Numbered from the stretch's first letter, positions 22,999-38,818 are shown. The stretch is DNA of 64,000 bases from Myxococcales bacterium (GCA_031423255.1 JANPFD010000236.1:171180-235179); one strand, 5' to 3'. The notes: generated by a model not told the origin, from the sequence alone. Program-made: numbers and translations.

Positions 22999-23000
22999 AC

Positions 23001-23234
23001 GTGCCTCCTGCCACGGTGCCGATGTCCCGGCTGCTGATCGACGCGGCCATCTTCGGTCTGGCGGGCATCGCGCTCCTCATCATCGGCTACTACGTCTGGG
23101 AGCTGGTGACCCCCTACAATCTGCGGCGCGAGCTGCACGAGAACAAGAACCTCGCGGTGGCAGTGGTGTGCGCCGCCCTCATCATCGGCATGGCGATAGT
23201 CATCGCCGCTGCACTGATCGCCAGTCGCCGGTAA
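23001..23234 (+). CDS. DUF350-family small membrane protein
   Basis: 77 aa with two TM helices and a central ELHENKNLAVAV motif. It starts 3 nt after the DUF1517 gene. Confidence 0.6.
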   Translation: MPPATVPMSRLLIDAAIFGLAGIALLIIGYYVWELVTPYNLRRELHENKNLAVAVVCAALIIGMAIVIAAALIASRR

Positions 23235-23270
23235 TTTTCTGGTAAGGTCGCCACTCTCCGTCGGCTAACG

Positions 23271-24818
23271 ATGAACAAGCTGGTCATCGAGGATGAAGAA
23301 GGTAAAGCGGTCGCCGTACCGCTGATCCGTGACGAGATCACGATCGGACGTCAGGAAGGGAACACCATCCGCCTGACGGAGCGGAACGTGTCGCGCCGGC
23401 ACGCCCGGTTCCAGCGCCGCGAGGGCGGCCAGTACTTCGTCGAGGACCTGTCGAGTTACACGGGCACCAAGGTCAACGGGTTGCCTATCAACGGCGCCGT
23501 GCCGGTCAAGGAGGGCGACCACGTCTCCATCGGCGACTACAAGCTGTCGATCAAGATAGAGCGTCCCGCGGGGGCCACGCTCGGCCACCAGCAGGCCGCG
23601 GCCTCACCGATCCCGCCCGCGCCCGTCGTGCCCGTCGCTCCCTTCCCCCGTGTGCCGACACCCATGGGCATCCCCGCCATGCCTCCTCCGGTCACACCGG
23701 CCATGGCCGTACCGCCCGTGGCGACGCCGTTGCCCCCCTTGGCACCGGCCGCCGACCCGATCGACGGCGCCCCGACGATCCCTGTGCGCGCCATGGTGGA
23801 GCAAGCACCCGCCGCCAGCGGCCCGCCAGCCAGGCTGGTGGTGATCACCTCGCCCCTGCAGGGCCAGGAGCACCCCCTCGATCGTCCATCGATGGTGATC
23901 GGTCGGACGCCCGAGAACGACATCGTGGTGAACCACAAGTCCATCTCACGCCACCACGCGAAGATCGTGCGTGACGGCGAGCGCTACGTCGTGGTCGACC
24001 TGGAGAGTGCGAACGGCGTCCGCGTCAACGGGGCTCAGTTCGATAGAGTCGATCTGAATCCGGGCGATGTGATCGAACTCGGGCATGTGCGGCTCCGCTT
24101 TTCGTCGGGCGACGACATGGGCTTCGACGGCGATGACTACGCGGCCGGCGGTTCATCGAAGAAGCCGATGGTGATCGGCGGCCTGGTGGTGGCGGTCCTG
24201 GCGGTGGGCGTGGCGGTGTTTGCCTTCTCGGGAAACAAGGCCGCACCACCGGAACCTCCGAAGGTCGCGGCACCCGCCCCCACCCCGCCCGCGCCGACCC
24301 CGCCCACGCCGGAGCCCACGCCGCCCGCGGCCGAGCCACCGCCCTCGGAGCTACCGCCCGTGATTGCCGCGAAACCGCCCGCGCCCGAGCCCGCGCCGGA
24401 GCCGGAGCCCGCCGCCAAGGAACCCCCGCCGGTACGCGAGCGGCCCCGCAGCGAACGCAAGGTGGCTACCGCCGAACCGGCCCCGATCCGCCCGACGCGA
24501 GCACCTGCGCCACGACCGACGGCGGCGCTCGAGCCGGGTCGCGAGCAGGCCGCGCCGGCGGCGGTGGGCGACCCCGAGGCGCTGATGAAAGATGCGCAGG
24601 ACGCCTGGCTCAAGGGCCAGTTCGCGGCCGCGGTCGAGGCAGCGCGCAAGGCCCTGCGGGCGAAGCCCGGGCTGGCGCGGGCCTACCAGATCATCGCGGT
24701 CTGTTCCTGCTCGCTCAAGGATGCGGACACCGCGTCCAAGGCGTACGACCGCCTCGACGACCGGAACAAGCAGATGGTCAAGACCCTCTGCCAGAAGAGC
24801 GGCGTGACGCTGCAGTAG
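23271..24818 (+). CDS. Tandem FHA-domain protein with a TM helix, Pro-rich spacer and C-terminal TPR
   Basis: Two FHA signatures (GR..N.I.L....VSRRHA... and GR....DIVV....ISRHHAKI). Confidence 0.8.
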   Translation: MNKLVIEDEEGKAVAVPLIRDEITIGRQEGNTIRLTERNVSRRHARFQRREGGQYFVEDLSSYTGTKVNGLPINGAVPVKEGDHVSIGDYKLSIKIERPAGATLGHQQAAASPIPPAPVVPVAPFPRVPTPMGIPAMPPPVTPAMAVPPVATPLPPLAPAADPIDGAPTIPVRAMVEQAPAASGPPARLVVITSPLQGQEHPLDRPSMVIGRTPENDIVVNHKSISRHHAKIVRDGERYVVVDLESANGVRVNGAQFDRVDLNPGDVIELGHVRLRFSSGDDMGFDGDDYAAGGSSKKPMVIGGLVVAVLAVGVAVFAFSGNKAAPPEPPKVAAPAPTPPAPTPPTPEPTPPAAEPPPSELPPVIAAKPPAPEPAPEPEPAAKEPPPVRERPRSERKVATAEPAPIRPTRAPAPRPTAALEPGREQAAPAAVGDPEALMKDAQDAWLKGQFAAAVEAARKALRAKPGLARAYQIIAVCSCSLKDADTASKAYDRLDDRNKQMVKTLCQKSGVTLQ

Positions 24819-24821
24819 CCG

Positions 24822-25247
24822 CTACTTCTTTTTTTCCAGGTCGACGTAAGCGTTGCCCGGTTGGGCCTGCTTCTCGACCGGCAGGTTCGAATCGGCCCAG
24901 CCGGCGAAGGCCACCCGGCCCATCGGATCGCGCTCGCCGTGGAAACCGCCACGCACATCGACGATCTGCGTGTAGCCGGCCGCCTCGAGGAACGCGGACG
25001 CCTGCGCCGACCGACCGCCCGACTTGCAGCCCACGACGAGCTTCGTGTCCCTGGGAAAATTCGACTCGACGACCCGCTGGAAGTCGGGGTTGGGAGCCAT
25101 GCGTCCCGACTGGGCGTGCAGCAGCGGCACGTTCGCGGCGCCCGCCGGATGGCCTTCGTCGAACTCCGGGATCGACCGCACATCCAGATAGCGCCAGCCC
25201 TGCTTCATCAACACGGCCGCTTCAGCCGATGAAATTCGCTTCGCCAT
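24822..25247 (-). CDS. Rhodanese-domain sulfurtransferase
   Basis: Active-site loop VVGCKSGGRS within a single rhodanese fold. Confidence 0.8.
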   Translation of the reverse strand: MAKRISSAEAAVLMKQGWRYLDVRSIPEFDEGHPAGAANVPLLHAQSGRMAPNPDFQRVVESNFPRDTKLVVGCKSGGRSAQASAFLEAAGYTQIVDVRGGFHGERDPMGRVAFAGWADSNLPVEKQAQPGNAYVDLEKKK

Positions 25248-25283
25248 GGGAGGTCATCTAGCATGAAGAACAGCCGCTGAGGT

Positions 25284-25706
25284 ATGATTCGCGGCCCCAT
25301 GGCGCACGCACCCAAGCACGTACGCGTGGTCGCTGCCGTCATCGAGCGGGACGGCAACTACCTCATCACGCAGCGGAGGCCGTCCGCGGTCCTGGGCGGG
25401 TTGTGGGAGTTCCCGGGCGGCAAGGTGGAGACGAACGAGTCGGACGAGCAGGCGCTGGTAAGGGAGCTCCGCGAACGCGTCGGCGTCGACGTCACCATCA
25501 AGGGCCGCGTCGCCCAGCGCCAGCACACGTACGACGGGTACTCGGTCGAGCTGAGCCTCTACCAGGCGACGATCACACCGGGACAGGAGCCGCACGCTGC
25601 CAAGGTGGCGGACTTCCGCTGGGTGGCCTCGTCGGACTTCGAGAAGTACCCGTTCCCGGCGGCTGATCAGGCGACCATGGATCTGCTCCTCGGGGTCAAG
25701 CGTTAG
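25284..25706 (+). CDS. NUDIX hydrolase (MutT-like)
   Basis: Nudix box GG.WEFPGGKVE..ES...ALVRELRERVGV. Confidence 0.8.
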   Translation: MIRGPMAHAPKHVRVVAAVIERDGNYLITQRRPSAVLGGLWEFPGGKVETNESDEQALVRELRERVGVDVTIKGRVAQRQHTYDGYSVELSLYQATITPGQEPHAAKVADFRWVASSDFEKYPFPAADQATMDLLLGVKR

Positions 25707-25708
25707 TG

Positions 25709-26593
25709 GCGCCAGTCCGGTCCATTCGCTCACCCACCCCCACGTTGAAGTCGCTCGATCCGGCGGCGGCACGCTGGATAGGCGCTCTCATCCGGGTGTC
25801 GGCGGCGCACCCGGCGATGACCCGTATCCTCGACGTCATCGTGAGGTTGCAGGAGCACCCGTACCGCACCTAGTTCGTCGTTCTGGGCGAGCCGGGCACC
25901 GGCAAGGAGGGGCTGGCGCGGGCGCTCCACCAGTTGCTCTCGCCGCGAGGGCCCCTGGTCCGCCTCGACGTGGCTGGCTTTCCCGAGGATGCGGCGCTGG
26001 AGGCGCTGTGCGGGACGCTGAAGGAACCGGGCGCCGCCGAGTCCGCCGACGGCGGCACCCTGGTGATCGAGGAACTGACGGCGATGCCACTGCGCGCCCA
26101 GGAGGCGCTGTTGCGGCTGCTCAAGGCCGGACGTTGCCGCCGGGTCGGCCAGAGCAAGGACCTGCCGCAACGTCTGACCGTGAACGCCATCGCCCTGTCG
26201 GACCACCCGATCGAGCGCGCCGTGACCGAGGGGCGCGTCCGCCACGATCTCTACTACCGCCTGGCGCGCGTGGTGCTGTGGCTGCCGCCGCTGCGCGACC
26301 GCTCCGACGACATCGGCCCGGCGGCGGTCTGGATGGGTAACCGCATCCTGGCCGCCGCGCAGGTGCCGCTGGAAGTGCGCACCACCGAGGACCTGCGCAC
26401 CGCCCCCGAGGCCGAGCGTAGACGGGCCATCGAACTCGACCCGGCTGCGGTGACGGCGCTGCGCGCCCACAGCTGGCCGGGCAACTTCCGCGAACTCGAG
26501 GCCACGCTGGAGCGGGCCCTGCTGCTTTACAGGGCGGGGATGAAGCTGGGCGCGAACGAGATCAAGGCGGCGCTGGAGTCTCCGACCGGTTGA
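25709..26593 (+). pseudogene. Stand-alone sigma54-activator-like AAA+ domain protein (no receiver, no HTH, GAFTGA loop replaced) interrupted by an in-frame TAG at 25871-25873
   Basis: Walker A (FVVLGEPGTGKE), the DLYYRL...LPPLRDRSDDI motif and the C-terminal WPGNFRELE motif are all present. The ESELFGHEKGAFTGA region reads EALCGTLKEPGAAES instead. An in-frame TAG lies between IVRLQEHPYRT and FVVLGEPGTGKE. The ORF-track ORF 25934.. begins at a TTG downstream of the Walker A. Confidence 0.5.
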
Positions 26594-27878
26594 CGGAGGC
26601 CGGATCGAAGCGCACGCCGTGCAGCAACAGCGCCCAACGCAGCAGCTTGCGTCGGGGCTGGGCGTATTCGCAGGCATCCGGTCCAGCCTTGTCTGGCAGC
26701 CCCGTGCTGCCCGGTTTCATGAAGCGCACCAGCCAGTCGCCCGCCGCGCGAGCAGCGGCCTCGACGCTGTCCTCTGGCGCACGGGCAAGAAGCGCGTGTG
26801 CGAGGATCACGTCATTCGCGTGCAGGTGGGCATCGCACGCGGGACGCGCACCGAAGAGACCATCCGCCGTCTGCGCGTGGAGCGCTCGCCCGATCTCTGC
26901 GTTACTGGAGGTCGATTCGGTGCCAGCCAGCGCCAGGGCAGCTTCGATCGGCCGCATGCGCTGACTCGCGCCGGCCTGGCCGCGCACCGCGACCGCCGAC
27001 GCTTGCACGGCCTGTCGCACTCCGTGCAAGCGGGGGGCATAGGTATCCGCGAAGCGGCTGCTCGCCACCGCCTCGAGGGCCACCCTGGCCCACGCGAGCC
27101 AGCGCGCCGTGCAGGCCATGTCCCCCGCTATGACCCATTGCGTGCGCGCACTGGGCGCGGTGGCTTCGATCACCGCCCAGCCCTCGTCCATGCGTGCCTT
27201 GTCGCCCAGGGCAGCGCCTGAAACCAGATTCATCACGCCCGTCGAGTGCTCGACGGCGCAGCCCCCCGCCGGCGTGCGGAGTTCGGGCCTCGGGACGCGC
27301 AACGATGCGACCAGCTCATGGGGCGCACGGCGGAGGACCGCGACCAGATTCTCGGTGCGCGGGACGCTCGACGCGACGTCACTGCTCCCGCGTGGTTCCG
27401 GAAGCGCCACGACCGGGCTCGACGGCTGCGGTGCGGATGGCGGCGCGGGTTCAGGCAAAAAGTGTGGAGGGGCGCCGCCGGTCTGCGAGCGGGGCACCGG
27501 AACCTCGCTCGAGCTGATCTCCCCGTGCGCGCGCTCGTGCGGCTGCCGCGCGGCAATCAGAAGCGCCACCGCGATGGCCACACCTGCGGGAACCGTGACC
27601 AGCAGTGTGCGCCGCAGACGCCGCCGCGGCCGCAAGTGCGTAGGTACGTCGGGAGCTGAGCGCGCCGCCACGATCTCCATGCAGCCGAGGTGGACGTCGA
27701 CGTACTCGAAGTAGAGACGTCGCACCTCGGAATCGTCCGCCACCAAGGAGCGCAGGCGACCTCTCTGCTCGGATGACGCCGTCTCATTGCAGACGGCTTC
27801 GAGCAGCGTCCAGATCTCGATCGAGACCTTCTCGCTCACGCTTGCCCTCCGCTGGTCCCCGTCCGCAGCCGCACACAC
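26562..27878 (-). CDS. Anti-sigma factor-like protein (N-terminal anti-sigma domain, one TM helix, large C-terminal domain of unknown function)
   Basis: It overlaps the 3' end of the ECF sigma gene. The N-terminal LLEAVCNETASSEQRGRLRSLVADDSEVRRLYFEYVDVH resembles anti-sigma N-domains, followed by a TM helix (LLVTVPAGVAIAVALLIAA). The start codon is uncertain. Confidence 0.5.
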   Translation of the reverse strand: MCAAADGDQRRASVSEKVSIEIWTLLEAVCNETASSEQRGRLRSLVADDSEVRRLYFEYVDVHLGCMEIVAARSAPDVPTHLRPRRRLRRTLLVTVPAGVAIAVALLIAARQPHERAHGEISSSEVPVPRSQTGGAPPHFLPEPAPPSAPQPSSPVVALPEPRGSSDVASSVPRTENLVAVLRRAPHELVASLRVPRPELRTPAGGCAVEHSTGVMNLVSGAALGDKARMDEGWAVIEATAPSARTQWVIAGDMACTARWLAWARVALEAVASSRFADTYAPRLHGVRQAVQASAVAVRGQAGASQRMRPIEAALALAGTESTSSNAEIGRALHAQTADGLFGARPACDAHLHANDVILAHALLARAPEDSVEAAARAAGDWLVRFMKPGSTGLPDKAGPDACEYAQPRRKLLRWALLLHGVRFDPASVNRSETPAPP

Positions 27879-28378
27879 TGGTGCAGCTTCCGGCGGATCA
27901 AGTTGAGCTGGTTGTAGAGCGTCTGCACCGCCCGGCCCATCCGCTGGGCGACATCCTTCATGGGCTGTTTGTCACGATAGATGCTGTCGAGAAGCCGACG
28001 CTCGTGATCACCCAGAGTGTCGATGCAGGTATTGAGTGCCGCGAGCCGGGCCTCGTGACGGTCGAGGTCCACGGTTCGTTCCTCCGCGACCCTCCCGAGC
28101 AGGTCGTCATCCAGCCAGAGTCGATCGCGGCCAGCGATGCGGCCGAAGTTCGCCACCTGGCGCCAGGCATATCCACAGGCCCAGGTCCGGAACGACGAGC
28201 GCCTGTCCCAGGTATCGAACTTGCGCCACAACGTCTCGCACGTCCGCTGGAACACGTCCTCGGCGTCCGCTCGACGAGGGAGCAGTGAGAAGATGAAGGC
28301 GAAGACTTGCTGCCGGTGCCGCTGCAACTCGGCCACGAACAGGTCTGTCGCGTCTTCGGTCGGCCGGTCCGTGTCCAC
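27836..28378 (-). CDS. ECF-family RNA polymerase sigma factor (sigma-70 regions 2 and 4)
   Basis: Region 2 (DAEDVFQRTCETLWRKFDTWD...FRTWACGYAWRQV) and region 4 (LDSIYRDKQPMKDVAQRMGRAVQTLYNQLNLIRRKL). It starts with GTG at 28378. Confidence 0.85.
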   Translation of the reverse strand: MDTDRPTEDATDLFVAELQRHRQQVFAFIFSLLPRRADAEDVFQRTCETLWRKFDTWDRRSSFRTWACGYAWRQVANFGRIAGRDRLWLDDDLLGRVAEERTVDLDRHEARLAALNTCIDTLGDHERRLLDSIYRDKQPMKDVAQRMGRAVQTLYNQLNLIRRKLHQCVRLRTGTSGGQA

Positions 28379-28387
28379 GCTTGGTCG

Positions 28388-28413
28388 ATGTACGGGCCCT
28401 GCCCGACTTACCG
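28388..28413 (-). promoter_or_regulatory. Motif copy A: CGGTAAGTC-N11-GTACAT (read on the minus strand), ending 9 nt upstream of the ECF sigma start codon; candidate ECF-type promoter/operator
   Basis: Plus strand reads ATGTAC-N11-GACTTACCG at 28388-28413, with the same 17-nt internal spacing as copies B and C. Confidence 0.45.
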
Positions 28414-29118
28414 AACATCGGCGGATTCGCCTGAAGCCCCGAGCGGTGTCGACGCGACGCGTCCAAGCCCCGTCGCGATACTGGCCGCCACCTGCTTGGC
28501 CAGGACGCGCGAGCCCTCGGGCGTGAAGTGGACGTTCACGGGTATCTGGATCTCTTTCAATCTGGGCAGGGCATAGCTGTAGAGATCATCGATGGGAACT
28601 CGATTCTCGAGCATGACCTTCTTCGCCGTCGCGTTGTAGGGGATGACGTCGGCGCTTCGTCGCGCCTTGACGTCGCCGGCAGGCACAGGAGTCGTGCTGC
28701 ACCAGATCAACCGAGCTCGCGTCTTCTCGAGCGTCGTCACGAGCGCCCTCAGATTCTTCTCGTAGTCCCCGAGGGACACCTGGTGGTTTCCGTCGTCCAT
28801 GACCCTGATGTCGTGAAGACCCCAGTTGAAATGGATCACGTCCCACTTGCCGTTTCCGACCCATTCCTCGAGGTGAGTCAATCCGTTGACGGTCGGCCCT
28901 CCGTTCGCTGGAATCCGGTGGACGTTGGCCCTTTCCTTCAGGAGTTCGCGCACCGCAACCGTGTACCCGATGGAGATGGAGTCTCCGATGAGCAGGACGC
29001 GGGGGAGCTTCGGATCGTCGATGACGGGAGCGTAGGCGGCCGCCTTGTCGGTCTTGCTGGCGGCCTGGGCGACGCCGAGCATCGCGACGCATACAGCAGC
29101 GCAAACAGGAATTTTCAT
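28408..29118 (-). CDS. SGNH/GDSL-family hydrolase (secreted)
   Basis: Signal peptide MKIPVCAAVCVAMLGVAQAAS, GDS block LLIGDSIS, and a WGLHD block. ATG at 29118; the upstream ORF-track extension was rejected. Confidence 0.75.
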   Translation of the reverse strand: MKIPVCAAVCVAMLGVAQAASKTDKAAAYAPVIDDPKLPRVLLIGDSISIGYTVAVRELLKERANVHRIPANGGPTVNGLTHLEEWVGNGKWDVIHFNWGLHDIRVMDDGNHQVSLGDYEKNLRALVTTLEKTRARLIWCSTTPVPAGDVKARRSADVIPYNATAKKVMLENRVPIDDLYSYALPRLKEIQIPVNVHFTPEGSRVLAKQVAASIATGLGRVASTPLGASGESADVR

Positions 29119-29127
29119 CTCGGGTTG

Positions 29128-29153
29128 ATGTACAGCCCTGCGCGGACTTACCG
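29128..29153 (-). promoter_or_regulatory. Motif copy B: CGGTAAGTC-N11-GTACAT (minus strand), ending 9 nt upstream of the SGNH hydrolase start codon
   Basis: Plus strand reads ATGTAC AGCCCTGCGCG GACTTACCG. Confidence 0.45.
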
Positions 29154-29172
29154 ACTGCGGGGAACTGACCGC

Positions 29173-29198
29173 CGGTAAGTCTCCCTGGGGTTGTACAT
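29173..29198 (+). promoter_or_regulatory. Motif copy C: CGGTAAGTC-N11-GTACAT (plus strand), 23 nt upstream of the DUF1592 gene start, followed by a GGAGG ribosome-binding site
   Basis: CGGTAAGTC TCCCTGGGGTT GTACAT, in inverted orientation relative to copy B within the same divergent intergenic region. Confidence 0.45.
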
Positions 29199-29221
29199 GA
29201 AGCAATGGACCGCCCCGGAGG

Positions 29222-30895
29222 ATGCTCATGGTTTCATCGACTGTCCGTTACGCGACCGCGGCTTCCGGCCTGATTCTGCTGACGCTGGGCGGTTGCACCG
29301 GCGACATTGGCCCCGCCACGGAGGCCGACCCACCGGGCGGAACGCCGACCCGGTCTGACGAGCCCCCATCGACGAATGCCGATCTCGCCCCGGCCCGCGC
29401 GCGCCGCCTGGCCATTGCCGAGATCCGGAACACCGTCGCGGACATGCTGTTCGCCGGCGCTCTTGGGCGTGTACCCCCGCTGCCGCCGCCCACGAATGAC
29501 GGGTTCGACAACGACACGGCGTTGCTCGGAATGGACATCGGGTTCGTGGAAACGATGAGCGTCTTCGCCGAAGCGACGGCGAACGAGGTGCTGAAGGATC
29601 TCACCCGACTCGCGCCCTGTGATGACCTGCGCATGGTGTCGGGCTGTGGTTCACGGTTCATCGCTACCCACGCGCCACGGCTGTATCGCCGACCAATCGA
29701 ACCCGCCGAGTCGCAGCGCCTGCTGGTTCTGTTCAACGCCGCGCTCGGCTCGGGCACCTACGAGCAGGCAGTGGCGTCGCTGATCCAGATGATGCTGCTC
29801 TCGCCGCAGTTTCTTTACCGCACCGAGCTGGGGTCGCTCCGGGACGCTGCGGGCGTGGTCACCCTGACGTCGTACGAGCGGGCCTCGGCGCTGTCGTACG
29901 GCCTGTGGCGGACGGGGCCCGACGCTCAGTTGCTCGCGGCCGCCCAGACGGCGGCGCTGGACGGCGAGACCGGCCTGCGCACCCAGGTTCTCCGGATGCT
30001 CGATGATCCACGCGCTCGCCCCGCGCTGCGGTCGTTCGTCGTGCAGTGGCTACAGCTGCACCCCATGGACGTCTCGAAGTCCGACCCCGTGTACACGGGC
30101 TCGCTCGCTCGCGCGATGCAGGTCGAGTCCGAGCGTTTCGTCGACGAGGCGCTCTGGGGCACGAACGCAGGGCTAGGAGCGCTCCTCACGTCGACGCGGT
30201 CGTTTGTAAACGGAGAGCTTGCCCGGCTCTATGGCCTGGATGTCTCCTCGACGACGCCGGTCGCCGTCTCGGTTCCCGTCGAACAGCAGCGAGGAGGTGT
30301 CATGGGCCTCCCGGCATTCGTCGCCTCGCACACGCCTCGCGACGCGTTCAGCCCGATCGAGCTTGCCGTCATCGTTCGCGTGCAGATGCTCTGCGCGACT
30401 CTGCCGACGCCTCCCGCCGATGTCCCCGACCCGTCGACCAACGCGAGGATGTCGACCCGCCAGCGGTTCGACCGCCATCGCGCGGATCCCGCCTGCGCCG
30501 GCTGCCACACGCTGCTCGATCCCGTCGGCTTTGCGTTCGAGCGGTTCGGCACGACGGGGCAGTATCGCCTGATCGAGCAACCTTCGGGCGCGATGCTGAC
30601 CGGCGAGGGGCGCCTGACTGCGACGGACGTCGACGGTCCGATCGTGGGCCCCGCCCAGCTCGGACAACGCCTGGCCGAAAGCAAGCAGGCTCGCTCGTGC
30701 GCGGCCGCGCAGACGCTGCGCTACCTGCTGGGCCGACCAACGTCCGTGCCCTCACAACGGACCACCGCCGACGAGCGGACCCTGACGGCAGTGACGGAGA
30801 CGACGTTCGCCGGCGGCGACTTCAAGAAGCTGATGGCGGCACTGGTGCTCTCGGATTCATTCCTGCGCCGCGATGGTTCCCGCTTGCCCAACTGA
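29222..30895 (+). CDS. DUF1592/DUF1588-family lipoprotein (Planctomycete-type PSD-domain protein family)
   Basis: Lipoprotein signal (LLTLGGC). The conserved C-terminal region has a CAGCH motif, which is typical of the DUF1592/1588/1585 family that pairs with DUF1552. Confidence 0.65.
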   Translation: MLMVSSTVRYATAASGLILLTLGGCTGDIGPATEADPPGGTPTRSDEPPSTNADLAPARARRLAIAEIRNTVADMLFAGALGRVPPLPPPTNDGFDNDTALLGMDIGFVETMSVFAEATANEVLKDLTRLAPCDDLRMVSGCGSRFIATHAPRLYRRPIEPAESQRLLVLFNAALGSGTYEQAVASLIQMMLLSPQFLYRTELGSLRDAAGVVTLTSYERASALSYGLWRTGPDAQLLAAAQTAALDGETGLRTQVLRMLDDPRARPALRSFVVQWLQLHPMDVSKSDPVYTGSLARAMQVESERFVDEALWGTNAGLGALLTSTRSFVNGELARLYGLDVSSTTPVAVSVPVEQQRGGVMGLPAFVASHTPRDAFSPIELAVIVRVQMLCATLPTPPADVPDPSTNARMSTRQRFDRHRADPACAGCHTLLDPVGFAFERFGTTGQYRLIEQPSGAMLTGEGRLTATDVDGPIVGPAQLGQRLAESKQARSCAAAQTLRYLLGRPTSVPSQRTTADERTLTAVTETTFAGGDFKKLMAALVLSDSFLRRDGSRLPN

Positions 30896-30907
30896 CAGGA
30901 GGTCCCG

Positions 30908-32290
30908 ATGAGCTCGCGTATCCGCTCCCGACGTCAGCTTCTGCAGACTTTGACCATCGGCACCGGCGTCGCGGCGTTCGCCCCCGCTTTGCGGCCATGG
31001 CGCGTGCGCGAAGCCTACGCGCAGCCGCCATCGGGGCCGCCGAAGCGGATCGTGTTCGTGTTCTTCCCCCACGGGTGGCCGGACCCCACGGACATCGCGA
31101 CGCCCGGCGTGTCGGCCACGGATTTCAAGCTGGGCGCCATCGCCCAGCCGCTCGAGCGGCATAGACGCGATCTGGTCATCCTGGACAACATGGAGTTCAA
31201 GCGCCCCGCCGACCAGGGTTTCCAGCACGGTGTCGGCCGGTGCATGCTGTGGACGGGACGACCGACGCTGGCGACGGACCCGGGGGCGGCCGCGAAGGGG
31301 ATCTCGCTCGACCAGTACCTGGGCAAGGTGGTGGGGACCAAGGTCACCCCTGGCCTTCCTCTCCTCAACCAGCGGCTCTATGACCGGGTCGGGCAGTTGC
31401 TCGAGTGCTCGTACAACGAGAGCGGGGGCGTCGTTCCCGCCAACGCGAACCCGCACGACGTCTACAACAGCGTGTTTCGCAACCTCGTCGTGGGAGGCCC
31501 ACCCAAGAGCGACCCCGTGGCAGACGCCGCGAGCGCACGCAAGAAGTCCGTCCTCGATGCGGTGGCGGCCGAGGTGAATCTCTTTCGCAAGCGTCTTGGA
31601 CCCGAGGATCGGATCCGCGCCGACGCCCAGCTCGAGGCCATCGCCTCGATGGAGGCCAAGGTCGCCGGGCTGCAGGCGCGAGGCGCGTCGTGCAGCAAGC
31701 CGCTGGACAACCTGGCCGTGCCGGTTCCGGATCCGTCGACCCGATCACTGCCTGCCCGGGCCGACCTTCAACTGTCGCTCTTGACCGCGGCCTTCGCCTG
31801 CGATCTCACACGAATCGCCAGCTACCAGGTCATGGGCGGCCAGAACCTTCCGTGCAACTTTTCGCCGGTCTCGAACTCGGCCAACTGGCACAGCCTGTCC
31901 CACGGTGGGAACGACAATTACGCGTCCTTCAGGAACGCCCAGCGCTGGGTATTCTCGCTGGTTGCCGACCTGGCGGATCGTCTGAAGGCCATCCCCGAGG
32001 GCGCAGGGACGATGCTCGACAACACCATCATCGCCATGGGCAGCGAGATCGGACCGCGCCATGTCCTGCACGGCCTGTTCCTGATGAGTCTGGGCGGCAA
32101 GAATCTCGGCATCAGGGTCGGCCAGCACCTGCGCTTTGGTGACGTGCGTGCGTTCGGTCGCGGCCAATCGCACAACCCGTGGCTGGTGTCCCTCATGAAC
32201 GCGATGGGGGTCCCGGGGGATACCTTCGGCGACACCACGGCGCTGGCCGGGCGAGGCTCGCTGCCGGGGTACTGGAGCGCGCCGGCGTGA
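30908..32290 (+). CDS. DUF1552 (HXXSHH-family) protein with a twin-arginine signal
   Basis: Tat-like N-terminus (SRRQLLQTLTIGTGVAAFA), an HSLSHG motif (NWHSLSHGGN), and a position immediately after a DUF1592 gene. Confidence 0.7.
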   Translation: MSSRIRSRRQLLQTLTIGTGVAAFAPALRPWRVREAYAQPPSGPPKRIVFVFFPHGWPDPTDIATPGVSATDFKLGAIAQPLERHRRDLVILDNMEFKRPADQGFQHGVGRCMLWTGRPTLATDPGAAAKGISLDQYLGKVVGTKVTPGLPLLNQRLYDRVGQLLECSYNESGGVVPANANPHDVYNSVFRNLVVGGPPKSDPVADAASARKKSVLDAVAAEVNLFRKRLGPEDRIRADAQLEAIASMEAKVAGLQARGASCSKPLDNLAVPVPDPSTRSLPARADLQLSLLTAAFACDLTRIASYQVMGGQNLPCNFSPVSNSANWHSLSHGGNDNYASFRNAQRWVFSLVADLADRLKAIPEGAGTMLDNTIIAMGSEIGPRHVLHGLFLMSLGGKNLGIRVGQHLRFGDVRAFGRGQSHNPWLVSLMNAMGVPGDTFGDTTALAGRGSLPGYWSAPA

Positions 32291-33778
32291 CGGCGGCATC
32301 GCTGTGTCTCGTCGCCGCGGCGCAGGTGGTCGCGGCCATAGCCGATCCGTCGCCTCGCCCGAACGTGATCTTCATTGCGCGCACACCCCATCTCGATGCC
32401 CTGGCGGCGCGAAGCCTGCGCTTCGACCACGCGTACGCGCAGTATCCGGTATGCAATCCCTCGCGTATCTCGATGCTGACGGGACTGCGGCCCGAGACTT
32501 TCCAGATCTACGACAACCGCACACCGTACCGCGCCAAGATCCCCGAGGCGCTGACGTTGCCGCGCCACTTCCGCGACGGCGGCTACCACACGGTGAAGGT
32601 GGGCAAAGTTTTTCACGACGGGCCAGCGTTCGACGACCCGCGCGCCTGGAACGAAGCTCTGGTTCCGGACGGAGCGCCGGGCTACGAAAAAGGCGAGGGG
32701 CGGCGCATGCTCGAATCCGAGCGGCTGGTGTCGATGGGTGGCATCGGAAGCGCCGGACGAGGCACAGCCGGACGGTGAGACGGCGACCGAGGCCATCCGG
32801 ATCCTCGAGCAAAGCAAGCCGGACAAGAAGCCGCTGTTCCTGGCGCTGGGATTCCGGCGGCCGCACGACCCATTCATCGCGCCCCAGGCGTACTTCGATC
32901 TCTACCCGCTCGAGCGCTTCAACCCATTGTCCCAGACGCGCGGGCCGACCGGCGATCCGCCCCCGGCGATCGAGCATGACGACCGGTTCCCGTTCGACGA
33001 TCGGGACAGGCGTGAGTTCTTGCGTGCTTACTACGCGGGCGTCTCGATGACCGACGCCCAGATCGGACGCGTGATGCGCGCACTCGATCGCCTTGGGATG
33101 GCGGAGGAGACCATCGTCGTCGTCACCAGTGACCACGGGTACCACCTGGGTGAGCGCGGCTGGTGGAACAAGGTGACGCTCTTCGAGCTCTCCACCCGCG
33201 TCCCGCTGATCGTCCGGGCTCCGGGGATGAAAACCGCCGGCCGTACCAGCGTGCGTCTGGTCGAACTCGTGGACCTGTTCCCGACGCTGGCGGACCTGGC
33301 AGGCGTGGCCATCCCGCCGAGCCTCGAGGGACGAAGCTTCCGGCCGTTACTCGCCGATCCGGACCGGCCGTGGAAGGCGGCGGCGCTGACCGTCGTGGCC
33401 CGCGGCTCGATCCTCGGCCGCACCGTCCGTACCGAGCAGCATCGATACACCGAGTGGGATGGCGGACGCGCCGGCCGCGAGCTCTATGACCACGGTCGCG
33501 ATCCGGGCGAGCACCGGAACCTGGCGGCGGATCGTGGACAGGCGGGAACCGTGCGCGCGTTGCACAGCCTACTGAACTCCGGACCCGGGGCTACCGAAAA
33601 AACGTCGTGTGCAGTACCTCCGACAGGAGGTTGCACAGGGCGTGGAACACCGCTCCCGGCGCGATCGAACCCGTACGCGCGCGCATCCACCCGAAGACCA
33701 GCGCCGGAAAGAACACCACGATGCGCGCTGGATCGAAGTCGACCAGCACGTGCCCCAGCGCGAACAACAGGCTGGTGA
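32287..33778 (+). pseudogene. Sulfatase (iduronate-2-sulfatase/arylsulfatase-like) with an in-frame deletion of the metal-binding DD region and a frameshift near 32735
   Basis: The N-terminal frame has a signal peptide, RPNVIFIA-RTPHLDALA (about 15 residues including the VDD...G loop are missing relative to canonical sulfatases), the CNPSR formylglycine motif and GKVFHDG. The reading frame switches to +1 around 32735, and the C-terminal part ([33 protein letters not shown]) continues from there. Confidence 0.6.
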
Positions 33779-34316
33779 CGATGAGCGGGCGGCCCACCAG
33801 CGCGTCCATGAACCGGCGCCTGGACGGCCAGCGCTCCTCGAAACGGGCCCAGAGATAGCCGCGGAAAAACAGCTCCTCCGGGATGGCCACCACCACCAGT
33901 TGCGACGCCGCCAGGAGGGCGAAGTCCGGCGGGAGCCGCAACGACGCGCCGTCGAGGCCGGTCCAGCCGGGACACAGCGGCGCGAACAGGTTCGCCCAGA
34001 CCTGCAGCAGCGGCGCCGTCGAAGCGCAGACCATGCCGTAGAACGCCAGGAACGACAGGAAGAAGCAGGGCCAGGTGAGCGCCAGCGCCGAGGCGGTGAT
34101 CCTCAGGTTCAACCGGAGCGGGTCGATGCGGAGGCCGGCCGCGCGGTAATCGAATCGGCGCCCCGACATACGGGCGGCCAGCGCGGGCGCGTACAGGAAG
34201 ATCACCGCGAGGGCTCCATGCAGGTTCGCGTGGACGAACGGCACCGCCTGGCCGATCCAATACAGCGCCGAACTGAGGGCCGTGGCGACGAGGAACGCCG
34301 CGAGCGGTTCGATCAC
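33591..34316 (-). CDS. CPBP-family intramembrane glutamic metalloprotease (CAAX protease / Abi family)
   Basis: EELFFRG and FALGH motifs across several TM helices. Confidence 0.75.
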
Positions 34317-34329
34317 CGCCGTCTTCCTG

Positions 34330-34581
34330 CTAGAAGAGGCGACTGAGGTCGTCGAGGGCGCGGCTGGCGTGGCGGGCGGCCCCGGCCAGGCGGTCGGGAG
34401 CCTGGGCGTCGATCCGCGAGGCCTTCAGGCCGACGAGGAGGGCGTCCAGCTGCCTCTCGATGGCTGTGATCGCCTCGCGGCTGCGCCGGAGCGCGGTCAC
34501 GGCACGGGGCATCGTCAGACGGGACTCGGCCGGGGGCGCTGGACACCGCTTCCGCGGAATCGAACGTCGGGCGGGGCGCAT
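34330..34581 (-). CDS. Small hypothetical protein (about 60-83 aa, predicted helical) immediately upstream of the CPBP protease
   Basis: ORF in an operon-like position between two minus-strand genes. Its composition is typical of GC-rich DNA, so coding status is uncertain. Confidence 0.25.
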   Translation of the reverse strand: MRPARRSIPRKRCPAPPAESRLTMPRAVTALRRSREAITAIERQLDALLVGLKASRIDAQAPDRLAGAARHASRALDDLSRLF

Positions 34582-34620
34582 GACCCAAGTTTCCGGTGGG
34601 CATGCGTTCTGTCAACTTTC

Positions 34621-36027
34621 TCAACCAAGCAGGTGGTGCGCCAGGGGGTCCACCACCACCTCGTGGCCAAGCGCCGTGCGGCCCACCAGCATGGGGCAAC
34701 GCATGTCGCCCCGGTCCGTCAGCGTCACGCGGATGCGCTTGCGGAGCGGCCCCAGTTCGAGTGTGGTCTCGATGACCGGGCGCCGCTCGGTGCGACCCGA
34801 GGTGTCCCTCACCTCGATGAACTCCTTGACCGGGACGCGCACGCGAAGCCGGCGGCGCGAGGAGCCCCCCACGGCCAGGGTCAGTTCGAGGATGGGGCGG
34901 CGGCTGGGCCCGGGGGCCGTCCCTACCGTGCGGCTGGCGATGACGTGGAGCGCTGAGGTGCGGGCTCCCGTATCGATCTTGGCGGGCACCCGCCCCAGGC
35001 CCAGATCGGGAAGCGAGATCGACTCGAGCCAGCCGACCCGTAACTTGGCTTCCGCCGGCGGGCCAGGCCGAGCTGCCTTAGGGTTCTTTGCGTCGCGCAC
35101 CGCCCCGACGAGAAACAGCACCGCGCCCTTCCGAGTCACCGGGCGATCGGGCGCCTCGAGGACCAGGCCTCGCGCCGGTGCACGCACGGCCACGGCCCGG
35201 CCGGGCAGCGGCCCCTCGATCCGGGCGAGCACGTGACCCTTGCCGACCAGCGCACCAGGCTCGACGGTCTCGACGAGCACACCGTCCGCCGGGGCCAGCA
35301 CGCGGACGAGGTCATGCACCACCGTTCCCGGGGCTCCGGACGCCCGGCCGACGCGCCCGACCAGGCCCGGCAGAACGATCGCCAGCGCGCGGCGACAGGC
35401 GGCCAGCAGGATCTGTCCGGCGCTGCCGACCCCCGAATCACCGCCAGCCACGAGGCCGATGGTGGTCCGGCGGGCCTGGCCGGCGACCGCCACCAGCGAC
35501 CCATCGGCCGCCGGGACGATCGCGCGGGCGCCGCTTGCGACCGCAAGCGCCCTCGCCCGCGTGTCGTCGGGACAGACCCGAGCGTACAGCAGGCAGCGCC
35601 GCCCCGGCAGGGGCGAGCCGAGCACGATGACTGCCTCGGCCCCTACCACCAGATCCGAGTAGAGGGCGAACGCCAACCGCCCGCGCCGCTTGCCTCCGGC
35701 GTCACCCGGCAGTGGCAGCGCTGGCACCACCCTCCCCGGCCGCGTGAACCGATTCCCGGGCCGCAGCACCGGCACCACCACCAGCGTCCCGGTCAGCGCC
35801 GCCGGATCCAGCTCGGCGATCAGCGCCCGCGCCGCCAGCGTGGAGGCCACCTCGCACCCGTGCAGGTTCGCCACCACGGTCACGCGCGGACCGGGCGCCC
35901 GCCCCACCGCCACCCAGGCGCCGACGGCCGTCGCCTCGTCGAGGCCGATGCTCACCACGGCAGCACGGCCCGGAGCGACCTCCACGCCGCCCACCCGCTG
36001 TGCGCGCGGCGCGACCTCGGTCGCCAT
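34621..36027 (-). CDS. Fusion protein: N-terminal succinylglutamate desuccinylase/aspartoacylase-like (AstE_AspA) domain plus C-terminal RimK-associated retropepsin-like domain (DUF785, annotated in databases as putative ATP-dependent zinc protease)
   Basis: The C-terminal LGRVPAKIDTGARTSALHV matches the DUF785 aspartic-protease-like signature. The N-terminal half resembles the AstE/AspA deacylase fold, including VANLHGCE. Confidence 0.6.
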   Translation of the reverse strand: MATEVAPRAQRVGGVEVAPGRAAVVSIGLDEATAVGAWVAVGRAPGPRVTVVANLHGCEVASTLAARALIAELDPAALTGTLVVVPVLRPGNRFTRPGRVVPALPLPGDAGGKRRGRLAFALYSDLVVGAEAVIVLGSPLPGRRCLLYARVCPDDTRARALAVASGARAIVPAADGSLVAVAGQARRTTIGLVAGGDSGVGSAGQILLAACRRALAIVLPGLVGRVGRASGAPGTVVHDLVRVLAPADGVLVETVEPGALVGKGHVLARIEGPLPGRAVAVRAPARGLVLEAPDRPVTRKGAVLFLVGAVRDAKNPKAARPGPPAEAKLRVGWLESISLPDLGLGRVPAKIDTGARTSALHVIASRTVGTAPGPSRRPILELTLAVGGSSRRRLRVRVPVKEFIEVRDTSGRTERRPVIETTLELGPLRKRIRVTLTDRGDMRCPMLVGRTALGHEVVVDPLAHHLLG

Positions 36028-36030
36028 GGG

Positions 36031-36402
36031 TCAGCTGTTTCCGAGGATCAGATCGTCGTCGTCGGAGAGATAGGCGAAGGTCCGCACCAGCGTCAGGATC
36101 TGCTCGCGCAGCGCCGGCGTCAGGTCCACGAACTGCACGCCCATGCCAGGATTGGCCCCCTCGGGGTTGACCGGCCGGGGTCGGTTCACCCAGACGACCC
36201 GCCCCTCCACGTCGATCGGCATCCCCCCCGGCGTCTGGAAGGCGAGGTTCAGCAAGGTCCCCGGCGCCAGCGGCGTCTCGGTATGCACGAAGATCCCCAT
36301 CGCCGAGAGGTCCGTGATGTACGCGAACAGGAAGGTGTCCCCGTCGCGGTAATCGACCTCGAAGTTCACCATCACGCGCTCGTACTCGCGGCGTTCGAGC
36401 AT
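36031..36402 (-). CDS. PilZ-domain protein (c-di-GMP binding)
   Basis: RREYERV and DLSAMGIFV motifs (RxxxR...DxSxxG). ATG at 36402; a longer upstream start at 36510 is possible. Confidence 0.7.
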   Translation of the reverse strand: MLERREYERVMVNFEVDYRDGDTFLFAYITDLSAMGIFVHTETPLAPGTLLNLAFQTPGGMPIDVEGRVVWVNRPRPVNPEGANPGMGVQFVDLTPALREQILTLVRTFAYLSDDDDLILGNS

Positions 36403-36463
36403 CGCGCGGCGCTCCGGCGACACCGGGACTGCCCGGCGCCGTCGGTCCTTCGGGCGTGTGGTC

Positions 36464-38818
36464 CTAACGGATCTCAACGGTCCCCAGCCGCACGCGATCG
36501 TCGCCGTCATTGCGCCCGGCGGTGATTCGCCAGCGCTTGCCTTCGCCGCCCGGCCAGAAGCCGATGAGTGCCGTATAGGTCCCGGCCGGCGTGGTCATGA
36601 GCGGCACGTCCACCTCGTAAGTATCGCGGATGTACTCCCCCGGAAGCCAGTAGTTCGTGGGGAAGATAGGGGTGTGGTCGCCGATGACACGCGGCTCCCC
36701 TGGGATGTCGAAGTGTGCGAAGATCTTGAACCCACCCGGTGGGCGCCGGAACACCCTAAAATAAAGTGTGAGCAGGATCTTGCCGGGGCGGCGTAGCTCG
36801 GCCGGAAAGTCCGCACCCACCAGCTCCACGGCGTTCTCGAAAGTCGTGCTGGTCGAGACCCGCCAGGTCCAGGGCGGAGCCTGGCCGTGCCAGTCGACCT
36901 TGGTCTCGTTCGAGCCTGGCTGGGTCGACACCTCGGGCGGCGTGGACGCCATCCAGACATCCTTCTTCAGCGGGTTCTGATCCTGCTCGCCACTTTTGAG
37001 CTGGTTCGACAGCAGCAGGAACCGCGACGACGAGGCATCGAGGACGTAGTAGTCGAGCTTGGCCAGCTTGAACGAAGCGTCGAGCGCTGCCAGCTCGTCG
37101 GAGGCGGTGAGGCAGAACGTCCTTTTGGGACGGCGGAGAAACTCCACCACCTGTTCCTGCGACGGGATGTCCACCAGCTCCCGCTCGCTGTAAAAGCCGG
37201 TTCCGTGACCCTCGACGCGGTACTTGCCTATCTCCTCGTCGCCCTTGGCGTAGCGGGCGTAGGACTCGAGTACCGGCTTGAATGACAGGTGCCGCGACAG
37301 CATCGGCAAGAGCGCGTGCGAGATGAATGCGCCGAACAGCACGGCCGCGATGACCGCCGCCTGCAAACCCCAGCGCCCCACCTCGACCACCAGGGTCTCG
37401 AGTCGCCGCTGCCACCGGCGCGCGCCCGTCCCCAGGTCACGCGGCGCCACCTTGCCGATGGCCCGACCGCGCGTGGCGAGGCCCGTGTAGAGGCCGAGGC
37501 TGACCACCAGGCCGACGGCCAGGAAGACGTAGCCCACGGTGATCGTCGGAGGCCACTTCACCTTGGCGTTCTGGAACAGGTGAACCGAGACCAGCTCCTC
37601 GGGCGTCAGGAAGAAGTCACGGGCAACGATCATCGTGCCGGTGGCGATCAGCAGCCCCAGCACCGGTTCCGAACGCTCACCTTCGAGCGCCTCGTCGAGG
37701 AAGATGCCGATGGCCAGGGCCAGCGCCGCCAGCGCCGGAAAGCGCGCGTCTCCGGTCATCAGCATGTAGATGGTGGCCAGCGCGAAAGCAAAGGCCGCGA
37801 AGATCAACAGGTACAGCTGCCCGAAAGCCAGGCGGCCGCCGTCGCGCTCCTCGGCATTGCCGAGGCGGATCAACGGCCGCCCCAGGGCGAACACCACCAG
37901 CGCGCTCCAGGGGAAGATGCCGAACCCGATCTGCTTGATGAGGTACTCGAACATCTGGGCCGGCGTCCCGGCACGGGGCACGCCGCCGAGCAGGATCGAG
38001 TAGCGGCCAGCAACGTTGGCGCGCAGGAGCGTCACGATCAGCACGCCGACGCCGAGGAGCGCCACCGCCAGTAGGAGCCCGCGCCCGTGTACTCCTTTGG
38101 TCAGGAGTCCCCGGCCGAAGCTGGTCCCCTCGGGCACGTCGCGCCCGGTGACGGCCGTCGTCAGCACAGCGGCGCCCTCGGTCTCGGCGGCGTGCGGCTG
38201 CAACCCCCAGCCGGCGACGATGGTCGCCGTCAACGCCAGGCAGGGAAGCGCCACACCGATGAGCGCGCCGCCCGAAAGAAGGCCGATCACCATGCCGGCG
38301 ACCGCGACGGCCAGGTCGCGCATCCGGCGCTGGCCCGTGGCGGGCCAGGCGAACCGCCCGAAGCCTCCGAGCGCGAGCGCCAGCCCGCAGACGAGCGGCA
38401 TGTCCGACAGCAACTGCCGCGCCTGCAGGATGAAGATCGGCATCGAGCCGAGGGCCAGCGCCGCCAGCAACCCGGCGCGGCGGCGAAACAGCCCCGCGCC
38501 CGCCCAGTACACCGCGAGAATCGCGCCCACGCCGGCCAGCGCGTCGAAGAAGCGCGCGCCCAGCTCACGCACGCCGAACACCTTCATGCCCAGCGCATCC
38601 AGGAACAGGTTCAGCGGCGGCTGGGGCGAGAACTTCCCACCCACCGTGGGGTCGAACAGGCTGGACGAGCGCATCACCGCGCGCGCCTGATCGGCCACTC
38701 CGAGCTCCCAGGGATCCCAGAACCCGAACGAGCCGAGACCGGGCAGGATCAGCAAGCCCGCGAAGATCGCGGCCCAGCCAGCAGGCGGCACCCGGCGCAG
38801 CTTGACCAAAAAGCTCAT
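36464..38818 (-). CDS. Large integral membrane GT-C / glycosyltransferase family 39-like protein (ArnT/PMT-like) with a large C-terminal periplasmic domain
   Basis: More than 10 TM helices, with architecture and N-terminal loop motifs reminiscent of ArnT/PMT-family GT-C enzymes. Confidence 0.6.
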   Translation of the reverse strand: MSFLVKLRRVPPAGWAAIFAGLLILPGLGSFGFWDPWELGVADQARAVMRSSSLFDPTVGGKFSPQPPLNLFLDALGMKVFGVRELGARFFDALAGVGAILAVYWAGAGLFRRRAGLLAALALGSMPIFILQARQLLSDMPLVCGLALALGGFGRFAWPATGQRRMRDLAVAVAGMVIGLLSGGALIGVALPCLALTATIVAGWGLQPHAAETEGAAVLTTAVTGRDVPEGTSFGRGLLTKGVHGRGLLLAVALLGVGVLIVTLLRANVAGRYSILLGGVPRAGTPAQMFEYLIKQIGFGIFPWSALVVFALGRPLIRLGNAEERDGGRLAFGQLYLLIFAAFAFALATIYMLMTGDARFPALAALALAIGIFLDEALEGERSEPVLGLLIATGTMIVARDFFLTPEELVSVHLFQNAKVKWPPTITVGYVFLAVGLVVSLGLYTGLATRGRAIGKVAPRDLGTGARRWQRRLETLVVEVGRWGLQAAVIAAVLFGAFISHALLPMLSRHLSFKPVLESYARYAKGDEEIGKYRVEGHGTGFYSERELVDIPSQEQVVEFLRRPKRTFCLTASDELAALDASFKLAKLDYYVLDASSSRFLLLSNQLKSGEQDQNPLKKDVWMASTPPEVSTQPGSNETKVDWHGQAPPWTWRVSTSTTFENAVELVGADFPAELRRPGKILLTLYFRVFRRPPGGFKIFAHFDIPGEPRVIGDHTPIFPTNYWLPGEYIRDTYEVDVPLMTTPAGTYTALIGFWPGGEGKRWRITAGRNDGDDRVRLGTVEIR

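Follow-up and report, generated by a model that had tools for sequence, protein, structure and literature searches.

A candidate ECF sigma factor regulon with a DUF1592–DUF1552 payload in a Myxococcales bacterium

Few unexplained gene pairs of Planctomycetes, Verrucomicrobia and Myxococcota are as abundant as those of PSCyt and PSD proteins with their partners exported by the twin-arginine translocation (Tat) pathway (DUF1552 and DUF1501). Here, we describe one such pair, a DUF1592-family lipoprotein gene followed by a DUF1552 gene, that lies beside an extracytoplasmic function (ECF) sigma factor and its candidate anti-sigma factor in a Myxococcales bacterium (GCA_031423255.1, JANPFD010000236.1:171180-235179). 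The whole stretch of 64,000 nucleotides that was analyzed is called the window, and the region of interest covers positions 25,709 to 33,778, counted from its first letter. He et al. 2017 reported that PSCyt3 genes usually adjoin one unknown family and often have sulfatases close by, that some of them carry carbohydrate-binding modules (CBMs), and that nothing is known of PSCyt3 function (PMC5615132). This agrees with the first-pass annotation of the window, which held that the function of the DUF1592/DUF1552 combination is unknown, and we found no functional characterization of either family in the searchable literature. A parallel module of DUF1501 with PSCyt1/2/PSD1, also with Tat signals, was proposed by Kamneva et al. 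2012 to have an electron-transfer role (PMC3542564). In Rhodopirellula baltica, a DUF1552 protein is induced by three stresses (Wecker et al. 2009; PMC2754498), and an ECF sigma factor has been proposed to regulate a PSD1/PSCyt2 protein (RB10049 -> RB10051; Studholme et al. 2004, as cited in PMC2754498). Finally, Cbp2D joins DUF1587 and cytochrome domains and donates electrons to lytic polysaccharide monooxygenases (LPMOs) (Branch et al. 2021; PMC8981238).

We consider it likely that the region is a small native ECF sigma regulon of a narrow Myxococcota clade, in which the sigma factor drives three promoters that share a motif, and with them a secreted payload. The motif is a 26-bp bipartite element, CGGTARGTC-N11-GKACAT, and its three exact copies in the window read into the genes for an SGNH hydrolase, the ECF sigma factor and the DUF1592 protein. 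By base composition, about 3e-4 exact copies would be expected by chance in 128 kb (both strands), and shuffled sequence gave a mean of 0.23 matches with up to two mismatches allowed.

In the mechanism that we propose, the membrane-bound anti-sigma factor would keep the TIGR02989-type sigma factor inactive until a signal at its orphan periplasmic domain led to release, whereupon the sigma factor would direct RNA polymerase to the three motif copies. The copy upstream of the sigma factor's own gene would provide autoregulation, and the other two targets would be the SGNH esterase gene, first in the sigma operon, and the divergent DUF1592-DUF1552-sulfatase operon. The core payload would be a two-protein periplasmic unit, consisting of a haem-c lipoprotein and a Tat-exported protein with an alkaline-phosphatase/sulfatase-like fold. 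Ester-removing helpers would assist it: an S1 iduronate-2-sulfatase-like sulfatase in every relative, the SGNH esterase in the window and a ThuA-like protein in one relative. Such a unit may act on an extracellular compound that is sulfated or esterified, a glycan being the likeliest candidate, and its haem subunit could exchange electrons with a His-ligated metal site in DUF1552.

Genes were picked by third-position GC content, because the window is GC-rich (about 68%), and then by Pfam and NCBIfam domain searches; the annotated part of the window is about 20.9-38 kb. These searches recovered every gene that the first-pass annotation had described, including a dedicated ECF sigma/anti-sigma pair adjoining the DUF1592-DUF1552-sulfatase genes. 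The features of the proposed regulon are as follows.

26562-27839, minus strand: anti-sigma factor candidate, 425 amino acids, without a known domain, directly downstream of the ECF sigma gene
27836-28378, minus strand: ECF sigma factor, 180 amino acids, of the TIGR02989 (Rhodopirellula/Verrucomicrobium) family
28388-28413, minus strand: promoter-like motif copy 1 (P_ecf), CGGTAAGTCGGGCAGGGCCCGTACAT, exact pattern match
28408-29118, minus strand: SGNH/GDSL hydrolase, 236 amino acids, Lipase_GDSL_2 match, start ATG 29118
29119-29221/29227: divergent intergenic region of about 103-109 bp, between the SGNH and DUF1592 genes
29128-29153, minus strand: promoter-like motif copy 2 (P_sgnh), CGGTAAGTCCGCGCAGGGCTGTACAT, exact pattern match
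29173-29198, plus strand: promoter-like motif copy 3 (P_duf1592), CGGTAAGTCTCCCTGGGGTTGTACAT, exact pattern match
29228-30895, plus strand: DUF1592-family lipoprotein, 555 amino acids, PSD5-PSD4-PSCyt3-PSD2, lipobox LTLGGC
30908-32290, plus strand: DUF1552/HXXSHH protein, 460 amino acids, PF07586, Tat motif SRRQLL, WHSLSHG
32287-33778, plus strand: S1-family (iduronate-2-sulfatase-like) sulfatase pseudogene, start GTG 32287

The bipartite motif, the sigma factor pair and their linkage

The conserved element was found by comparing the divergent intergenic region with its orthologous counterpart in contig L003, from a Myxococcales metagenome-assembled genome (MAG). There, the ECF and DUF1592 orthologues are each preceded by the motif, and a second motif pair occurs where the promoter and the 5' end of DUF1592 are duplicated at the contig end. 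In Logan contig L021 (SRR23086378), it again stands upstream of the ECF and DUF1592 genes. The motif has been kept in position and orientation in these two related contigs though the proteins are 50-73% identical, and all nine sites in the three genomes are oriented into the downstream gene. An alignment of seven sites has CGGTA.GTC and G.ACAT as its invariant parts, plus three scattered positions, with flanks and spacer not conserved. No further copy was found in the 64-kb window, a relaxed spacer included.

The distance between divergent copies varies (19, 51, 73 and 90 nt) and the internal spacer is constant at 11 nt, as expected of two promoters rather than of one palindromic operator. The first-pass annotation had suggested a promoter motif shared between the sigma gene and its neighbours, and the element proved both real and stronger than claimed. 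Its bipartite structure, fixed spacing, position upstream of the sigma gene and of putative targets, and conservation in orthologous loci fit an autoregulated ECF promoter and its regulon, and we infer that the sigma factor uses these sites as its promoters. A sigma-70 consensus scan of the region was of little information, as it returned no promoters, and terminators at chance level; an Rfam scan of 24-35.5 kb found no RNA family.

P_ecf ends 9 nt before the GTG start of the sigma gene, with the SGNH stop codon TAA inside its upstream element, and P_sgnh ends 9 nt before the SGNH start codon. This equal distance suggests that the SGNH and sigma transcripts may be leaderless, as such a short interval before ATG 29118 would itself imply for the SGNH mRNA. 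P_duf1592 ends 29 nt before ATG 29228, with a GGAGG ribosome-binding site in between. The spacers and 9-nt leaders of P_sgnh and P_ecf are alike, both sharing GCAGGGC, which is consistent with a promoter duplication around an inserted SGNH gene. The SGNH gene is absent from the L003, L021 and L020 loci (L020 is a further related contig, described below), and from this distribution it is best read as a lineage-specific addition placed ahead of the sigma gene. Its product matches Lipase_GDSL_2 at 35.8 bits (cutoff 32.9), has the GDS motif LLIGDSIS and, when translated from ATG 29118, carries the signal peptide MKIPVCAAVCVAMLGVAQA. The Logan gene call starts at the internal Met 29082, giving 224 amino acids without the signal peptide.

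The duplication in L003 involves positions 11591-11813 and 8082-8270: a near-exact duplicate of both divergent promoters, with ~100 nt from the start of DUF1592, is located after the DUF1552 gene, and the contig stops within this repeat. DUF1552 has at least four paralogues of 52-60% identity (L002-L005) in this MAG. This suggests cassettes tandemly amplified under the same promoter. On one short contig of the MAG (L004, 165-1671), two DUF1552 genes are arranged head to tail, 20 nt apart.

The sigma factor scores 145.8 bits against TIGR02989 (cutoff 124.55) and 47.1 bits against Sigma70_r2 (cutoff 24). Regions 2 and 4 are present and region 3 is absent; Sigma70_r4_2, at 19.1 bits, falls below its cutoff of 25.7, yet lies at the expected position (114-165). 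Identity to the sigma factors of L003 and L021 is 73-74%. As the first-pass annotation had claimed, the sigma and anti-sigma genes overlap: the GTG start of the latter and the TGA stop of the former form GTGA, with GGAGGG just upstream, through which the two are predicted to be translationally coupled.

The 425-amino-acid protein consists of a cytoplasmic N-terminal region, one hydrophobic helix, TLLVTVPAGVAIAVALLIAA, which comes after an RRRLRR stretch, and a periplasmic domain of ~320 amino acids. It has no HxxxCxxC zinc motif and no Pfam or NCBIfam match, which leaves the periplasmic domain without a known family. Among 5.8 billion proteins it has only three other full-length relatives, and an exhaustive HMMER search with the periplasmic domain returned six matches among 1.84 billion representatives. 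Two scans of Joint Genome Institute (JGI) metagenomes, one with an anti-sigma alignment and one with an ECF alignment, returned nothing from this clade. In every relative (L003, L020 and L021), the gene lies directly downstream of an orthologous ECF sigma gene. This adjacency, with a single transmembrane helix between cytoplasmic and extracytoplasmic parts, makes the protein the candidate anti-sigma factor of the adjacent sigma factor.

The related loci are organized as follows.

L003: sulfatase <- anti-sigma <- ECF, divergent from DUF1592 -> DUF1552
L021: DUF1552 <- DUF1592, divergent from ECF -> anti-sigma -> ThuA -> sulfatase
L020 (Logan SRR20217180): ECF -> anti-sigma -> 325-amino-acid protein -> sulfatase

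The window, L003 and L021 each have a cluster of genes for the ECF sigma factor, anti-sigma factor, DUF1592, DUF1552 and a sulfatase, and the L020 cluster has those for the ECF sigma factor, anti-sigma factor and sulfatase. A sulfatase is linked in 4/4 loci of this ECF clade, and DUF1592 and DUF1552 are adjacent in every examined homologue context with flanking DNA.

The secreted payload

The DUF1592 protein matches PSD4 (110 bits), PSCyt3 (84), PSD5 (65) and PSD2 (31), all above cutoff, and PSD3 weakly (19.7 bits against a cutoff of 23). It has the PSD5-PSD4-PSCyt3-PSD2 order of the PSCyt3/PSD proteins and one c-type haem motif, CAGCH, at residues 423-427. The CxxCH residues C423, C426 and H427 are invariant in 68 homologues, and the lipobox Cys is conserved in at least 90%; we therefore predict a c-type cytochrome-like haem-c lipoprotein. 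No Met or His that could serve as distal ligand is found among the invariant columns of these homologues. Four further cysteines, C131, C140, C389 and C491, are invariant or nearly so, and the haem may thus have His/Cys ligation, or the cysteines may form structural disulfides. The AlphaFold2 model is all-alpha, with a predicted local distance difference test score (pLDDT) of 92, and neither a Foldseek search with the model nor a sequence-profile search matched any PDB entry.

The DUF1552 protein scores 155.6 bits against PF07586 (gathering cutoff 30). The Tat signal and HSLSHG motif noted at first pass are both there: the twin-arginine sequence SRRQLL occupies residues 7-12, and in the motif H328-S-L-S-H332-G a Gly replaces the last His of HXXSHH. 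Across the family (68 homologues), R47, G56, H107, S133, D135, R302, H328, H332 and H385 are invariant; 19/68 members match TAT_signal and 3/68 weakly match DUF1501. The AlphaFold2 model built with these homologues has a pLDDT of 88. Its top 42 Foldseek matches in the PDB are all alkaline-phosphatase-superfamily proteins, among them sulfatases, LtaS and phosphonate monoester hydrolases; the probability reaches 1.0 and the best E is 1e-5. The core fold of this superfamily is predicted from the model. A sequence-profile search of the PDB gave no relatives, and hhalign weakly aligned 'DNTIIAMGSEIG' with a 12-residue sulfatase segment (45% probability).

The canonical catalytic set of alkaline phosphatases and sulfatases is missing from the DUF1552 protein. 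There is no Asp after strand 1 (FVFFPHGW), 'SEIG' stands in place of 'SDHG', and His107 falls within 'HxxGxxxxLTG', where sulfatases have 'CxPxRxxxLTG'. An invariant His thus appears to occupy the place at which sulfatases carry their nucleophile. Given these missing residues, DUF1552 would be a divergent member of the superfamily and probably not a sulfatase in its chemistry.

The GTG start of the sulfatase gene (32287) overlaps the DUF1552 stop codon as GTGA, the coupling described at first pass. The gene carries two lesions: an in-frame deletion of 16 codons at about 32371-32379, which removes the metal-binding Asp-Asp ('VDDLR...') segment, and a +1 frameshift from one extra base within 32719-32725. 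At the deletion, a 28-residue stretch of the intact L003 orthologue becomes PNVIFIARTPHL. When that orthologue was used in tblastn, the window matched in two frames, at 78% and 70% identity. Both lesions also occur in an independent assembly of the same organism, Logan contig L001 (from the same run as L020), which matches window positions 20908-38040 with 99.97% identity over 17 kb. The motifs CNPSR and SDHGYH are left, in a gene that, with the Asp-Asp pair deleted and the frame broken, no longer encodes an intact S1 sulfatase.

The sulfatase orthologues in L003 and L021 are intact. The solved structures nearest to the L003 orthologue are 6hhm (8e-78) and human iduronate-2-sulfatase 5fql (5e-69), which points to a carbohydrate-type S1 sulfatase. 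The gene's position after DUF1552 was taken at first pass as part of the array, and it is not ancestral: in three relatives (L003, L020 and L021) the sulfatase follows the anti-sigma gene, and from this gene order the place after the anti-sigma gene is read as ancestral and the window order as derived. In the window organism, the sulfatase would have moved behind DUF1552, and its decay is recent, since identity is still 70-78%.

The L020 anti-sigma factor is 50% identical to that of the window, the last 26 residues of the L020 sigma factor are 96% identical, and a DUF1592 homologue (P0127) has 53% identity to the window protein. A second paralogous module is probably present in this organism or in a co-resident relative. 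The L020 cluster may be an intact paralogous module of this kind, which would explain why loss of the window sulfatase was tolerated.

The open reading frame of the sulfatase runs 188 nt into the convergent CPBP gene, about 46 codons past the end of the orthologue. The third-position GC signal of the plus strand fades near 33,550, and the tail past this point is probably non-coding read-through.

Alternative readings and flanking genes

Several points weigh against the regulon that we favour. Outside the clade, DUF1592/DUF1552 pairs have neither an adjacent ECF sigma gene nor a sulfatase; both links are accordingly confined to this lineage and reveal little of what the pair does in general. 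The substrate of the payload is a guess. AAC and CGT cores, common in ECF promoters, are lacking from the motif, and the two divergent window copies form an inverted repeat (29125-29153 / 29173-29201, with P_sgnh as the left arm; 29-nt arms, 76% complementarity) that could equally be an operator. For DUF1552, the Foldseek TM-scores are low, mostly 0.3-0.38, and the placing of H107 at the nucleophile position is based on matching motifs and secondary structure rather than on aligning the structures residue by residue.

The DUF1592/DUF1552 pair might instead be an envelope-stress or redox-homeostasis device, handling periplasmic metal or oxidants for example, with the sulfatase and esterase as co-regulated passengers. 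ECF sigma factors commonly respond to envelope stress, most DUF1592/DUF1552 pairs have no carbohydrate-active neighbour, and in Rhodopirellula baltica a DUF1552 protein and several ECF sigma factors are induced by heat, cold and salt (PMC2754498). We nevertheless find this reading doubtful, given the sulfatase at all four loci of the ECF clade, the fusion of some DUF1592 homologues to CBM2, CBM60 or extra cytochrome c domains, of which the CBM fusions bear on the question, and the association of sulfatases and CBMs in Verrucomicrobia (PMC5615132). Beta-helix proteins, one of them pectate-lyase-like (Pel9A-like), also adjoin the module in L003 and L019.

The missing ECF-type cores and the inverted repeat would both suit a 26-bp element that serves a dimeric transcription factor as its operator, or that is some other repeat, with the sigma factor controlling other genes. 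This is improbable on the arrangement of the copies. The copy in front of the sigma gene has no paired copy; the divergent copies in L003 and L021 are 51-90 nt apart, against 19 nt in the window; and every copy points towards its downstream gene. The conservation is bipartite around a non-conserved spacer of fixed length, and a copy always precedes the sigma gene, a classic sign of autoregulation.

A bolder proposal goes beyond the native regulon, and we give it little credence. Here, DUF1552 would have exchanged the nucleophile and Asp ligands of its superfamily for the invariant His cluster (H107, H328, H332 and H385) and, with its obligatory haem-c partner, would form an unrecognized class of periplasmic redox enzymes acting on sulfated or esterified glycans, switched in this clade by the ECF sigma factor through a near-orphan sensor domain that detects the substrate. 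If true, a defined promoter and a regulator would for the first time open the PSCyt/DUF1552/DUF1501 modules to experiment, after a lack of any explanation since 2004.

Three genes flank or adjoin the proposed regulon.

25284-25706, plus strand: NUDIX gene, Pfam/NCBIfam match
25817-26593, plus strand: sigma54-type AAA+ gene, Sigma54_activat match, in-frame TAG at 25871-25873
33591-34316, minus strand: CPBP/Rce1-like protease, Pfam/NCBIfam match

The AAA+ gene had been annotated as broken, making it one of two pseudogene-like lesions; the sulfatase lesions hold, and that of the AAA+ gene is specific to the window assembly. L001 differs from the window at only five positions, all transversions and all within 25842-25880 (39 bp), just upstream of the Walker A motif. 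Four of them are non-synonymous and one gives rise to the TAG, at which L001 reads AAT (Asn) and so encodes an intact 258-amino-acid protein; the stop is therefore an allele or an error of one assembly. The cluster of five differences may stem from local hypermutation, from an artefact of assembly or from an allele of the strain. Gene conversion from a paralogue within the window was considered and rejected, as no donor sequence was found there. The protein matches Sigma54_activat (87 bits) and AAA_lid_14 (41 bits), has no helix-turn-helix, receiver or sensor domain, and carries the loop GTLKEPGAAE instead of GAFTGA. With neither the GAFTGA loop nor a C-terminal helix-turn-helix of an enhancer-binding protein, it is a stand-alone sigma54-activator-type ATPase core of 258 amino acids. 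The 3' end of its gene overlaps the convergent anti-sigma gene by 32 nt. The AAA+ gene, which the first-pass annotation had counted among the elements of the unit, was rejected as a module member: it is intact in L001, and no counterpart adjoins the module in any related locus.

It is very unlikely that these 8 kb are an accessory island that came horizontally from planctomycetes, is partly decayed and is set between housekeeping genes, as first proposed. In its favour, neither NUDIX nor CPBP has a counterpart next to the L003 or L021 module, so that the neighbourhood of the module differs from genome to genome, one gene of the block (the sulfatase) has certainly decayed, and the ECF sigma family is named after Rhodopirellula and Verrucomicrobium. 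However, at about 50% identity the relatives are too far removed for flanking synteny to be informative, since its loss would be expected in any case, and the AAA+ lesion is absent from the second assembly. In tetranucleotide distance to the remainder of the window, 25709-33778 shows no deviation (z=0.69, within the range of other 8-kb windows), and the GC content of 0.65-0.70 lies within the window range of 0.64-0.73. The tRNA scan found no tRNA at the locus, and we found no flanking direct repeats and no integrase, transposase or other mobility genes there. The locus thus has neither the composition, the mobility genes nor the boundaries of a genomic island. Every module protein has its best homologues in Myxococcota, and the nearest public relatives are MAGs from Myxococcales/Polyangiales, by which the organism itself is placed in Myxococcota. 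The DUF1592/DUF1552 combination had been called a hallmark of Planctomycetes, a label that goes back to Rhodopirellula, on which the Pfam names were coined; for both proteins, the great majority of the nearest homologues belong to Myxococcota. Horizontal acquisition is unsupported, although these data would be compatible with an ancient transfer. The lowest GC content of the window (0.64-0.65) is found outside the region, at 9000-11000 and 52000-54000.

Comparison with described systems

As a genome feature, the locus is best seen as an ordinary native ECF regulon with one dead gene, and it offers a tractable entry to an old unknown. The first-pass annotation had named it as a candidate for an undescribed functional system. 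This stands insofar as the function of the payload is unexplained; as a new type of system it does not, for the sigma factor and the gene pair are both of known kinds. The locus is compact and testable, with one sigma factor, one anti-sigma factor, a 26-bp motif suited to reporter fusions, and a sulfatase that is consistently linked in relatives. A reporter on the motif could allow inducers, and so substrates, to be screened.

Autoregulated ECF sigma/anti-sigma pairs are classically represented by RpoE-RseA of E. coli and CarQ-CarR of Myxococcus xanthus. As in these pairs and in RB10049 -> RB10051, the sigma factor and a single-pass anti-sigma factor are co-transcribed and translationally coupled, which is here predicted from sequence. 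A promoter-like element likewise precedes the sigma factor's own gene, and the putative regulon is a small one of neighbouring extracytoplasmic proteins. The differences lie in the near-orphan sensor domain of the anti-sigma factor, its lack of the HxxxCxxC zinc motif, and promoter elements of the form GGTARGTC / GKACAT, in contrast to the common GGAAC / CGTC type.

We know of no DUF1552 partner for Cbp2D of Cellvibrio japonicus. No LPMO gene was identified in the annotated part of the window. Cbp2D, an extracellular protein of c-type cytochrome kind, combines PSD3/DUF1587 with cytochrome c domains and a CBM, a combination also seen in some DUF1592 homologues (PMC8981238); the window protein differs from it in matching PSD3 only below cutoff.

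The DUF1501 and PSCyt1/PSCyt2/PSD1 modules of Planctomycetes–Verrucomicrobia–Chlamydiae bacteria resemble the window pair more closely, since both are two-gene units of a Tat-exported partner and a protein with a cytochrome c motif, and both occur as many duplicates per genome (PMC3542564). Electron transfer to sugars or proteins has been proposed in both cases. Unlike the window pair, however, those modules use different Pfam families on both sides, and the similarity between DUF1552 and DUF1501 is marginal (best E=0.005).

Closest of all are the PSCyt3/PSD and DUF1552 pairs of Planctomycetes and Verrucomicrobia (PMC2754498, PMC5615132). They have the same Pfam architectures in adjacent genes, a Tat signal on DUF1552, CxxCH in the PSCyt3 partner and, often, sulfatases nearby. 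The window pair is set apart from them by a short DUF1592 lipoprotein (555 amino acids) without CBM or extra cytochrome domains, by its myxobacterial host, and by a dedicated ECF sigma/anti-sigma pair that would act on it via an identifiable promoter-like motif.

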